A stretch of 4,372 bases of DNA from a virus (Duplodnaviria; Heunggongvirae; Uroviricota; Caudoviricetes). Both the position numbers and the translations under genes were made by a program. The notes under the pieces are model-generated. The model worked only from the letters and a program-made list of their open reading frames with translations, made no database searches and was not told where the DNA came from. Each line of letters starts with the position of its first letter. The stretch's first letter is position 1. Location: positions 1-4,372 of IMG/VR virus record IMGVR_UViG_2778261571_000009; one strand, given 5' to 3'. Below are positions 2,581-4,372 of this stretch, one piece after another.

Positions 2581-2703
2581 AAAACAGAATAAAAAACATA
2601 TGACTTTGGCGATTACCCAGTAAAGATATTCGAAATAAATGTAAATATCGGCAATGAATAACAATCCTCGCACTCGCGGGGATTTCTTTTATATGGGGAT
2701 AAT

Positions 2704-3504
2704 ATGACCATCCACTTTCACGGCAGCCCAATATGGGGGGATGAGCATGCCCCTACAGATATGCTGATTAAAGCCCTTTACCGTGATGGTGGGGCTTTTG
2801 TTTCATTTGCCAGACCAGAGCAGATGAAAAAGATTGCCATGTTCCCTTGTGATATACGCCTTGATAACGGCGCTTTTAGCGACTGGATGAAAGCATTAAA
2901 GAAAGGCACTCCGGTAGACTGGAGTAAGAGGCGAGCAAAATTCTACGACTTTGTTGGGAAGTGGTTCAGCAGAATTGAATGGTTTCTTATACCTGACGTT
3001 ATCGAAGGGACAGAGGCAGAAAACGACGAGCAGATTGAGTTGGTTCCTGATTGGCTAAAATCAAAAGCGGTTCCGGTCTGGCATACCGACGAATCAATTG
3101 AACGTCTTTTACGCCTTTCTGGCAAATTTGAATGGGTGGCGATTGGATGCTGCGGCCCACACAGGCACATACGCTCTAAATGGTGGGAACAGAGAATGGA
3201 TGAAGTTTTCACTGAGCTTTATATCAATCGTAATTTGAAAGTGAAAATTCATGGTCTTCGAATGCTCGACGTGAGAGTTCTTGGTATGTATCCGTTCGCC
3301 AGTGCGGATTCTACTAATGTTGCTGTTAACGTACCGAAGACAGAGAAGCGATTTCCTGAGATTACTGACAAACTGGCACGTACAGCTGTACTTCGCGCTG
3401 CTATTGAAAAGGTGCACCCGCCATCGATATCAGCATGGGTAGACAGAAAGATGAGAGAGCCGGCGCAAGCCGGTTTTTTATTTGAATTCACCGACGCCGC
3501 TTAA
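2704..3504 (+). CDS. TGT-like (tRNA-guanine transglycosylase fold) protein, 266 aa, lacking the C-terminal zinc subdomain; candidate DpdA-like DNA 7-deazaguanine transglycosylase
   Basis: GGGG at 2695-2698 before ATG 2704. Colinear motif matches to TGT as I remember it: FVSFARPEQ (TGT FHLWLRPGQ), IRLDNGAFS (ILTDSGGFQ), WFLIPDVIEG (IVMIFDEC), FEWVAIGCCG (FDGYAVGGL), MYPFASADSTNV (DMFDCVMPTR). There is no CxCxxC...H cluster after the last motif. Confidence is for the gene being real; the functional call is inference (about 0.5). Confidence 0.7.
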   Translation: MTIHFHGSPIWGDEHAPTDMLIKALYRDGGAFVSFARPEQMKKIAMFPCDIRLDNGAFSDWMKALKKGTPVDWSKRRAKFYDFVGKWFSRIEWFLIPDVIEGTEAENDEQIELVPDWLKSKAVPVWHTDESIERLLRLSGKFEWVAIGCCGPHRHIRSKWWEQRMDEVFTELYINRNLKVKIHGLRMLDVRVLGMYPFASADSTNVAVNVPKTEKRFPEITDKLARTAVLRAAIEKVHPPSISAWVDRKMREPAQAGFLFEFTDAA

Positions 3505-3522
3505 TGCGGATTTCTTTTATCT

Positions 3523-3549
3523 GAACTCGCTACGGCGAGTTTTGTTTTA
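3523..3549 (+). terminator. putative intrinsic terminator after the TGT-like gene
   Basis: Stem ACTCGC (3525-3530) / GCGAGT (3535-3540), loop TACG, extendable by A3524-T3541, followed by TTTGTTTTA. A weaker CCGC/GCGG hairpin spans the stop codon at 3497-3509. Confidence 0.55.
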
Positions 3550-3561
3550 TGGAGATGATAA

Positions 3562-3729
3562 ATGCACTTCCGAGTAACAGGTGAATGGAATGGAGAACCA
3601 TTCAACAGAGTTATCGAAGCAGAGAACATCAACGACTGCTATGACCACTGGATGCTGTGGGCGCAGATGGCACATGCAGACGTAACCAATATTCGAATTG
3701 AAGAACTGAAAGAACACCAAGCCGCCTGA
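3562..3729 (+). CDS. hypothetical small protein (55 aa)
   Basis: GGAG at 3551-3554, 7 nt before ATG 3562. MHFRVTGEWNGEPFNRVIEAENINDCYDHWMLWAQMAHADVTNIRIEELKEHQAA, stop TGA 3727-3729 inside the loop of the following terminator. Not on the ORF track because of size. No family recognised. Confidence 0.5.
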   Translation: MHFRVTGEWNGEPFNRVIEAENINDCYDHWMLWAQMAHADVTNIRIEELKEHQAA

Positions 3730-3742
3730 TGGCGGTTTTTTT
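3719..3742 (+). terminator. intrinsic (rho-independent) terminator
   Basis: AAGCCGCC (3719-3726) pairs with GGCGGTTT (3731-3738): five G-C pairs, one G-U and two A-U. Loop TGAT, then a T-run through 3742 (GGCGGTTTTTTT). Confidence 0.7.
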
Positions 3743-3756
3743 ATTGGAGACAAGAA

Positions 3757-4101
3757 ATGTCAGATTTGGCTATGAAGGTTTTGAAATGGCAATCGACTGG
3801 CGATGTCGGCATCAGTAGCGCAACTCTTGCCTCAATCGCATGTGGACTGAAAAAGAATATCTATGGTCATCACTTCGGCGCTCCACATGACGTAGCCGAT
3901 TTCCGGCGATGCGTTGCACTTGTTGAGCAGATTCCAGAAATCAGAGATTCATTCGACAAGGTTGCAAAGCGCGTTCCGGCATTCAAAGGAATCCTCAACG
4001 AATGGGATTCCCTCGTTGCTCTGTTGAAGTCTGAAATGAAGACGTACGGGAACAAAGCACCAGAGACTTACAGAAGAATCAGCGAGCTACGCAAGGACTA
4101 A
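3757..4101 (+). CDS. hypothetical protein (114 aa)
   Basis: GGAGA at 3746-3750, 6 nt before ATG 3757. ORF on track. Contains a His-rich segment GHHFGAPHD. No family recognised. Stop TAA 4099-4101. Confidence 0.65.
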   Translation: MSDLAMKVLKWQSTGDVGISSATLASIACGLKKNIYGHHFGAPHDVADFRRCVALVEQIPEIRDSFDKVAKRVPAFKGILNEWDSLVALLKSEMKTYGNKAPETYRRISELRKD

Positions 4102-4140
4102 CCCGCCTCACACTCGATGAGGCCTGTTCATATCTGATAG

Positions 4141-4166
4141 AGCCGCAGTATGGCGGTTTATTTTTG
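4141..4166 (+). terminator. possible weak intrinsic terminator upstream of the AlpA/Xis-like gene
   Basis: GCCGC (4142-4146) / GCGGT (4153-4157) stem with one G-U, loop AGTATG, followed by TTTATTTTTG. A separate 6-bp hairpin GCCTCA/TGAGGC at 4105-4123 has no U-tract. Confidence 0.35.
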
Positions 4167-4180
4167 CCTGGAGAATTAAG

Positions 4181-4372
4181 ATGACCGATACCAGCCTGAT
4201 TCCTGAGAAAGAAGTGATGAACAAGCTCGGTGTTTCATCACGTCAGACAATCTGGAACTATACCAAACGGCACGGATTTCCGAAGCCAGTCAGAACCCAC
4301 CCCAAATCATACCTTCGTGAAGCTGTTGAAGGGTGGATTCTTAACGGTGGCGTTAATCAGAAATGCTCCTGA
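4181..4372 (+). CDS. AlpA-family helix-turn-helix DNA-binding protein; putative prophage excisionase (Xis) or regulator, 63 aa
   Basis: GGAGA at 4170-4174 before ATG 4181. ...EVMNKLGVSSRQTIWNYTKRHGFPKPVRTHPKSYLREAVEGWI... matches the AlpA/Xis-type pattern (L.s.stiy.....g.FPkPv.....s..W...ev..W). Location at the 3' end of the left arm is where xis sits just before int. Confidence 0.8.
   Translation: MTDTSLIPEKEVMNKLGVSSRQTIWNYTKRHGFPKPVRTHPKSYLREAVEGWILNGGVNQKCS

Follow-up and report, generated by a model that had tools for sequence, protein, structure and literature searches.

Two small genes ahead of an AlpA-type xis in a putative lambdoid prophage operon: an Orf55-like gene, an HK022p30-family gene and their relation to a TGT-like neighbour

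Orf55 (lambdap35) is among the seven ORFs that make up the exo-xis region of phage lambda (PMC3824215), and the gene has already been named in lambda, 434 and HK022. A model of lambda Orf55 published in 2021 has three strands and a helix, and a role in RNA polymerase modulation was speculated from its likeness to T7 Gp2, phi29 p56 and RNAP epsilon (PMC8614690). Older work, as cited in PMC9239242, implicated the orf73-ea22-ea8.5-orf55 block in inhibiting the initiation of host replication. In the CRISPRi essentiality map of lambda, lambdap35 falls outside the genes tested (PMC10695390).

This study surveyed two adjoining ORFs, of 55 and 114 codons (hereafter ORF55 and ORF114), within a window of 4,372 nucleotides, which is the whole stretch of DNA analysed. 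Both were found to be ordinary, already catalogued lambdoid accessory genes. The best explanation of the locus, which is probable when taken as a whole, is that the window comes from an E. coli prophage of lambdoid/P22-like type and covers the distal portion of its early-left (pL) operon, from erf, an SSB-like gene and abc2 to xis, and that ORF55 and ORF114 belong there as non-essential, independent accessory genes of the 'exo-xis / ea-region' kind. The part of this explanation that concerns identity and architecture is very likely to be correct, and a host-directed function of both proteins is suggested only tentatively.

The window and its two genes

The operon was recognised by Pfam and PHROG matches to ERF, Abc2, SSB-like and AlpA proteins, together with synteny with HK106, HK022 and HK97. 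Megablast comparison of the window with phage records gave mosaic matches to HK106, HK022, HK97, Sf101, CUS-3 and Stx phages, with no record covering 80% of the window. The counterparts of this pL-distal stretch in lambda and P22 are the 'exo-xis' and 'ea' regions, respectively. The features referred to below are listed here, the genes being taken from the ORF list and family scans.

152-787: erf
787-1170: SSB-like gene
1194-1490: abc2
1772-2497: LprI-like gene, 241 aa
2704-3504, + strand: TGT/DpdA-like gene, 266 aa; match to phrog_887 'queuine tRNA-ribosyltransferase' (E = 1.4e-102)
3523-3552, + strand: hairpin (8 bp, 4 GC) with T-rich tail (site 3523-3542), between the TGT-like gene and ORF55
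3551-3554, + strand: GGAG ribosome-binding site of ORF55, 7 nt 5' of the ATG
3562-3729, + strand: ORF55, 55 aa; phrog_676, orthologue of lambda Orf55 as judged by sequence
3682-3756, + strand: conserved linker of 75 nt, made up of the ORF55 3' end (48 nt), hairpin, T-tract and GGAG
3719-3738, + strand: terminator hairpin with the ORF55 stop codon inside its loop
3746-3749: GGAG ribosome-binding site of ORF114, 7 nt 5' of the ATG
3757-4101, + strand: ORF114, 114 aa; member of the HK022p30 / PHROG 1229 family
4140-4166, + strand: weaker hairpin (7 pairs, 4 GC) with interrupted T-run (site 4140-4159), ahead of the AlpA-like xis
4181-4372, + strand: AlpA-type excisionase/regulator (xis), 63 aa; PF05930 and phrog_66; xis-int end of the early-left operon

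The TGT-like gene had no match in the Pfam and NCBIfam scans, and the PF05930 match of xis (E = 0.0032, 17.8 bits) lies under the 21-bit cut-off.

ORF55 and ORF114 are real genes under purifying selection. Among 71 distinct full-length alleles of each ORF, taken from 221 fetched loci, the variable sites at codon positions 1/2/3 numbered 15/5/25 in ORF55 and 40/30/88 in ORF114, and the pooled Nei-Gojobori dN/dS values were 0.19 and 0.15, respectively. A first-pass annotation of this DNA had given the same coordinates and sizes for both ORFs and had noted their good ribosome-binding sites, all of which was confirmed. Conservation as coding sequence, which it had named as a test, is borne out by these dN/dS values and by full-length PHROG matches. 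Its description of both proteins as unrecognised and not assignable to any family has to be replaced, ORF55 corresponding to lambda Orf55 (PHROG 676) and ORF114 to HK022p30 (PHROG 1229).

Its sequence identifies ORF55 as orthologous to Orf55 (lambdap35) of phage lambda. The phrog_676 match spans residues 1-55 of 55 (E = 2e-39), the 'ORF55' of lambda and of phage 434 is 96.4% identical over 55/55 residues (tblastn), and the gene is noted as 'similar to lambdap35' in the HK140, HK106 and mEp213 records. It was found in 46% of complete E. coli genomes (2484/5426). The protein is acidic (pI 4.9), as is its family uniformly (median pI 4.75). Its AF2 model (pLDDT 89.9) shows a beta-beta-alpha-beta arrangement (E2-9, E12-19, H23-36, E41-49), in agreement with the three strands and one helix described for lambda Orf55 (PMC8614690). 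Scans with Pfam, NCBIfam and PADLOC gave no match for either ORF55 or ORF114, sequence searches against PDB chains returned chance-level matches only, and no functional study of either protein was found in the literature by accession or PHROG number.

The modelled fold raises the question of whether ORF55 might modulate host RNA polymerase in the manner of T7 Gp2, through contacts with the beta' jaw and with sigma70 region 1.1. In the structural comparison Gp2 ranked 31st, behind PurS, eL20 and many small, unrelated proteins of the alpha/beta type, so that the likeness appears generic and at the level of the fold only. Furthermore, one of the two arginines critical in Gp2 is an asparagine in Orf55 (PMC8614690); the equivalent positions in Orf55 are N43, which is invariant in the family, and R45, which is nearly so. 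A Gp2-like activity of ORF55 is, on these models, unlikely.

ORF114 is an ordinary member of the family that includes HK022p30, mEp213 gp26 and PHROG 1229, with a full-length HMM match (phrog_1229, E = 2.4e-51, residues 1-114 against 1-113 of 116). The mEp213 gp26 protein, annotated as 'similar to HK022p30', is 97% identical to it. A word-indexed search with ORF114 returned solely enterobacterial 'hypothetical proteins', many of which are chimeric with neighbouring ea genes, and an exhaustive profile search with a cut-off of E <= 1e-3 returned 2808 cluster representatives (clusters counted at 50% identity), of which 624 passed E <= 1e-10. The family thus extends from phages that infect Proteobacteria to those of actinobacteria. 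The phage collection holds 277 family records, every one annotated 'hypothetical', of which 150 are from Vibrio phages; the others include P22-like Salmonella, Yersinia, Klebsiella, Cronobacter and Mannheimia phages as well as Haemophilus SuMu (Mu-like) and the phages of Gordonia and Arthrobacter. The HK022p30 / PHROG 1229 family is uncharacterised and is without a Pfam or NCBIfam model. PHROGs 15291, 4212 and 8038 are related to PHROG 1229.

All of the 56 diverse ORF114 relatives that were aligned also matched phrog_1229, and none of them matched Pfam. Residues W11, S20, P43, D45, D48, R51, C52 and W83 are invariant in this alignment, and all are present in ORF114. The AF2 model of ORF114 (pLDDT 93.5) is all-helical with seven helices; no solved structural relative of this predicted fold was found, nor was any informative structural, domain or neighbourhood partner. 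ORF114 is basic (pI 9.2), which is not a family trait as the pI of family members spans 4.6 to 10.1. It had been proposed that the His-rich GHHFGAPHD segment could bind metal or a nucleotide. The 56-sequence alignment speaks against such a site, with H38, H39 and H44 being variable and located within the most indel-prone loop.

Several apparent leads for ORF114 were discarded. The fusion with a CCA-adding enzyme (P0264) is known from a single 1.9-kb metagenome contig and contains an internal 'MKDKM' start-like sequence, and is probably a two-gene read-through; among the 20 longer ORF114 relatives, no Pfam domain was found in the extensions. The JGI label 'UTP:GlnB uridylyltransferase' (GlnD-like) on another relative (P0359) has no Pfam support. 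ORF114 equals the P22-type Xis in length and occupies the same slot; BLASTP against P22 Xis and EaC, with E values of 0.13 and 19, led to the rejection of this candidate.

Relation to the TGT-like gene

Given that both ORFs lie directly downstream of the TGT-like gene, they had been put forward as accessory factors of its pathway, that is, as accessory subunits or regulators of a TGT/DpdA-like DNA-modification enzyme. The copy numbers of the three genes in 5426 complete E. coli genomes do not agree with this proposal. The TGT-like gene was found at 84 places in 82 genomes, against 3211 places in 2484 genomes for ORF55 and 1246 places in 963 genomes for ORF114. At most 2.6% of the ORF55 copies and 6.7% of the ORF114 copies in E. 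coli can therefore adjoin a TGT-like gene. The junction from TGT to ORF55 was present in 70 of the 5426 genomes, which is 70 of the 82 TGT carriers, and the junction from ORF55 to ORF114 in 346.

A similar picture was obtained outside the complete genomes. With flanks of 6 kb, a TGT-like gene was found in 6 of the 80 IMG/VR loci seeded with ORF114 and in 8 of the 80 seeded with ORF55. In lambda, 434, HK140, mEp213 and P22-like phages, one or both genes occur in its absence, and the relatives of ORF55 or ORF114 in Mannheimia, Mu-like, Vibrio and actinophages have no TGT neighbour. The link is not a conserved functional pair: ORF55 and ORF114 are overwhelmingly found without the TGT-like gene.

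Viewed from the TGT-like gene itself, the association depends on how closely its alleles are related. All of the E. coli copies are 95-100% identical. Of the 28 near-identical alleles in IMG/VR (98-100%) whose downstream sequence is long enough, 27 have ORF55 or an ORF114-family gene behind them, a regularity that favours an accessory role, as does the junction in 70 of the 82 TGT-carrying E. coli genomes. At this level of identity there were 17 loci with ORF55 alone, seven in which an ORF114-family gene follows directly (including alleles just 58-63% identical) and two with both genes; one further locus has another gene and one lacks downstream sequence. Among TGT alleles that are 76-88% identical, ORF55 was downstream in none of the ten assessable loci and ORF114 followed directly in one (88% identical); in the remaining nine the next gene, as assigned by sequence reading, encodes a 66-aa protein or is an excisionase-like (AlpA-type) ORF or a methyltransferase-like gene. 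The adjacency of TGT and ORF55 is thus confined to near-identical TGT alleles, suggesting that a single recent cassette lineage is physically linked within a common genomic slot.

The gene-neighbourhood check suggested in the first-pass annotation, co-occurrence with the TGT-like gene, accordingly came out against the proposal both in the E. coli census and among the divergent TGT alleles. Neither ORF55 nor ORF114 resembles a protein of the deazaguanine pathway, as Pfam, NCBIfam and PADLOC revealed no homology to DpdB/ParB-like proteins, QueC/D/E, FolE or amidotransferases. The junction between TGT and ORF55 is, moreover, a recombination breakpoint at which 87 homology blocks start. Taken with the copy numbers and the many relatives that lack a TGT neighbour, these results make an accessory role of either protein in TGT/DpdA-like modification very improbable. 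A one-way dependence of TGT on ORF55 is nevertheless conceivable, because ORF55 lies directly downstream in 70 of the 82 TGT-carrying genomes.

Hairpin-bounded cassettes ahead of xis

A consensus scan for hairpins followed by a T-tract recognised 13 terminator-like sites in the window, against 3.7 +/- 1.9 in shuffles. The segment 3505-3561 folds with -16.4 kcal/mol (z = -3.3 against shuffles) and the segment 3705-3756 with z = -2.4, and the HK140 record annotates the ORF55 hairpin as a rho-independent terminator. The third hairpin, at 4140, starts 39 nt past the ORF114 stop codon, and the fold z of 4102-4180 is just -0.8. The earlier observation that each ORF is followed by a hairpin and T-tract therefore stands in that all of the sites were found, but the site after ORF114 is weak. 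The hairpin at 4140-4166 repeats the ORF55 terminator element with 83% identity, and belongs to a repeat family (D1) with copies at 3458, 3495, 3720 and 4141. The hairpin at 3523-3552 forms the 5' part of the ORF55 homology block.

BLAST comparison of the window with all loci revealed that homology blocks start and end at a few positions. Starts were concentrated at 3500-3509 (87 HSPs) and 3730-3739 (43 HSPs), and ends at 3740-3749 (88 HSPs) and 4130-4139 (82 HSPs). These breakpoint clusters (3500-3510, 3730-3749 and 4130-4139) coincide with the hairpins, indicating that ORF55 and ORF114 are exchangeable cassettes at the xis-proximal end of the early-left operon. That each ORF occupies its own hairpin-bounded cassette, as had been noted before, is well supported by the ending of the homology blocks at hairpin/T-tract elements. 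The breakpoint counts also put figures on a clear case in which the seams of lambdoid mosaicism lie at hairpin terminators. Copies of a 16-nt direct repeat (D3), GGATTTCTTTTAT[A/C]TG, stand on either side of the TGT cassette, at 2680 and 3508.

At the conserved linker, 3682-3756, the homology block of ORF55 meets that of ORF114. P22, which is without ORF55, carries this linker unchanged between eaG and eaC, and the first seven nucleotides (ATGTCAG) of P22 eaC and ORF114 are in common. In HK140, the ORF55 hairpin is joined straight to the AlpA-xis leader that here follows ORF114. A match to the Rfam sRNA isrK at 3682-3742 was rejected, having scored 18.3 bits against a gathering threshold of 50 bits and covering mostly the terminator hairpin.

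The sole sigma-70-like site recognised by the consensus scan within the whole window is at 2394-2421, far upstream of both genes, and none was found directly upstream of ORF55 or ORF114. In the light of this, the two are regarded as gene-plus-terminator units inside an (antiterminated) operon rather than as autonomous morons.

While the genes directly upstream are varied (22 different ones for ORF55 and 20 for ORF114), those downstream fall into six classes for each ORF. Downstream of ORF55, 47 loci showed only four types of excisionase-like ORF, ORF114 (eight intact and two frameshifted copies) or an unidentified 71-aa ORF (2/47 loci). In all 55 loci with enough flank, the gene directly downstream of ORF114 was an excisionase-like ORF or an integrase; the excisionase assignments of neighbours were made by sequence reading and not by scan. 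Both genes adjoin excisionase/integrase genes of any type.

The constant last place ahead of xis/int would be explained if one or both proteins served the integration/excision module, whether in directionality, in xis/int expression or in the timing of excision. The 55/55 loci of ORF114 are in line with this, as are those of ORF55 apart from the two with the 71-aa ORF, and so is the involvement of at least four unrelated xis types. The same xis-proximal slot is also kept in Cronobacter, Salmonella SF3 and Mannheimia phages, the Mannheimia relative of ORF114 lying directly 5' of xis and between terminators. On the other hand, the slot is not kept in Mu-like, Vibrio, Klebsiella, Yersinia and Gordonia phages, and ORF114 relatives in Mu-like, Vibrio, Klebsiella, Yersinia and actinobacterial phages are far from any integrase. 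In distant phages the neighbourhoods of ORF114 relatives are just arrays of small early genes; the relative in Haemophilus SuMu is in a Mu-like early region, and an early accessory context was also seen in Klebsiella, Gordonia, Vibrio and Yersinia phages. BLASTP gave no homology to P22 Xis/EaC, no HTH was detected, and the position can be accounted for by a conserved terminator/linker beside xis with which the adjoining ORF travels. A role in integration or excision is thus considered improbable.

Possible roles and comparison with known systems

If ORF55 and ORF114 are independent accessory genes of a pL operon, as preferred here, their transcripts would start at pL and be made by antiterminated RNA polymerase. 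The effect of the hairpins would be to halt unmodified polymerase and so to make xis-int expression dependent on antitermination; they may at the same time supply short patches of homology for the gain, loss and swap of cassettes. Reading further from the sequences, both proteins could be early, TGT-independent factors directed at the host. ORF55, small and acidic, would bind or inhibit a host protein, and ORF114 would be a helical protein in which the invariant P-x-D-x-x-D-x-x-R-C segment may form a functional surface. The fallback offered by the first-pass annotation, that these are independent anti-defence or regulatory proteins, is compatible with all of the findings.

A more specific role for ORF55 would be a contribution to the block of replication initiation and the cell-cycle control attributed to the lambda orf73-ea22-ea8.5-orf55 segment. 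Prior genetic work, as summarised in PMC9239242, points in this direction, and the exo-xis region is known to affect lysogenisation and induction (PMC3824215). The effect was, however, never resolved to orf55. Orf73 (TraR-like) and Ea22 already account for much of the phenotype of the region, and ORF55 here does not have ea8.5, ea22 or orf73 as neighbours. Such a contribution is considered improbable.

A bolder proposal is that the ORF114 family represents a new class of early host-takeover/counter-defence protein with P-x-D-x-x-D-x-x-R-C as a new active or binding site, that ORF55 is a second, independent small inhibitor, and that the hairpin linker beside xis anchors both. This is conceivable, if doubtful.

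The present results do away with a tempting but mistaken association of two hypothetical genes with a DNA-modification-like enzyme, and allow one of the genes to be filed as the long-known, still unexplained Orf55 of phage lambda. The other comes from a phage family that is among the larger ones for which no domain model exists, with a confidently predicted and apparently new helical fold. Together with the sharply conserved motif of the ORF114 family, this fold makes the family worth including in anti-defence or host-takeover screens. The residual interest of the locus resides in the size and structural novelty of this family and in the role of lambda Orf55.

The 'moron'-type or linker-bounded cassettes of lambdoid phages are a concept that reportedly arose from the comparative genomics of HK97/HK022 and HK620. 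ORF55 and ORF114 share with them the arrangement of single genes between hairpin terminators and breakpoints at gene boundaries, but morons carry their own promoter whereas none was detected by the window scan for these two genes. T7 Gp2, phi29 p56, AcrIE2 and T4 Dmd have a minimal alpha/beta fold of the kind modelled for ORF55, without sequence similarity, and the non-inhibitors PurS and eL20 match ORF55 better than do these small phage inhibitors.

The closest counterpart of ORF55 is lambda Orf55, with which it shares the length of 55 aa, the predicted fold, a place among the last ORFs ahead of xis in the pL operon and a hairpin terminator overlapping the stop codon. The two differ in their surroundings, as lambda Orf55 sits between ea8.5 and a lambda-type xis while ORF55 here is located between the TGT-like gene and ORF114, with an AlpA-type xis beyond. 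ORF114 fills exactly the slot of P22 eaC, behind the same linker, ribosome-binding site and first codons; there is no sequence homology to EaC, Xis, the TraR-like Orf73, Ea8.5 (homeodomain/zinc-finger fold) or Ea22. More broadly, both genes share their place, between the recombination genes and xis, with the P22 'ea' and lambda exo-xis accessory genes (ea22, ea8.5, orf60a, orf61, orf63, orf73 and eaC), which are non-essential, early, pL-transcribed and highly mosaic.

Gene neighbourhood at the xis/int side

Among loci L004-L083 and L129-L208, an excisionase-like ORF or an integrase was found directly after ORF114 in all cases (55 of 55). After ORF55 (47 loci), only excisionase-like ORFs, ORF114 or, in two loci, a 71-aa ORF were observed. 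At least four unrelated xis types occupy the downstream side of ORF55/ORF114, and at least 20 different genes were found on the upstream side, a pattern of positional anchoring.

The ORF114 cassette is flanked by two copies of one hairpin element that are 83% identical (window 3720-3742 and 4141-4163), and phage HK140 presents an 'empty site' in which the ORF55 hairpin directly abuts the same AlpA-xis leader (L002, about 2715-2770). These flanking copies and the HK140 arrangement suggest that the cassette was gained or lost via recombination between the hairpin copies.

Variant forms of ORF114

Chimeras of ORF114 are frequent, with its N- or C-terminal half joined to Ea22-like, ERF, Kil or dNTP-pyrophosphohydrolase fragments; they were seen in Stx2 phage 86 (L215, 2668-2898) and in many database proteins. 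These joined halves show that recombination or frameshifts are not confined to the borders of ORF114 but occur inside it too.

Other architectures were also recorded. In the relative P0264 (L222), an ORF114-family copy is located at the C-terminus of a CCA-adding enzyme, a doubtful case known from a single contig. The architectures listed for P0264, P0161 (L223) and P0176 further include a 333-aa protein with two tandem family copies, and an N-terminal copy followed by a 170-aa extension. A 123-aa form of ORF114 is annotated in some records; its start lies inside the ORF55 terminator and is out of frame in the window.

Upstream genes

The TGT-like gene is rare, being carried by 82 of 5426 E. 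coli genomes. No Pfam TGT match was obtained for it, and its sole label comes from PHROG. A 16-nt direct repeat, GGATTTCTTTTAT[A/C]TG, is present on both sides of its cassette (window 2680-2695 and 3508-3523), each copy being preceded by a hairpin. A strong hairpin/T-run falls within the 3' coding end of the gene (3454-3479). Further upstream lies:

1772-2497, LprI-like gene, 241 aa, LprI (lysozyme-inhibitor) domain PF07007 (E = 8.5e-5), phrog_4675

This gene is rare among related loci. As read from sequence, its product has a signal-like hydrophobic stretch at the N-terminus, and the gene is followed by the window's strongest terminator (2502-2529, z = -4.9). It is a candidate moron of the lysogenic-conversion type.

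The ORF55 terminator and its counterpart in P22

At window 3682-3742 (+), the Rfam match to isrK, a Gifsy-1 prophage sRNA, was sub-threshold (18.3 bits versus 50) and owed mostly to the terminator hairpin; STnc420 and Trp-leader gave further weak matches there. P22 carries, without any change, the last 48 nt of ORF55 together with the terminator, T-tract, RBS and ATGTCAG (window 3682-3756 versus L227 2501-2581); ORF55 is absent from this phage, and the stretch sits between the early accessory genes eaG and eaC. The P22 stretch marks an old recombination junction and is either what is left of an ORF55 or a linker that has been conserved.
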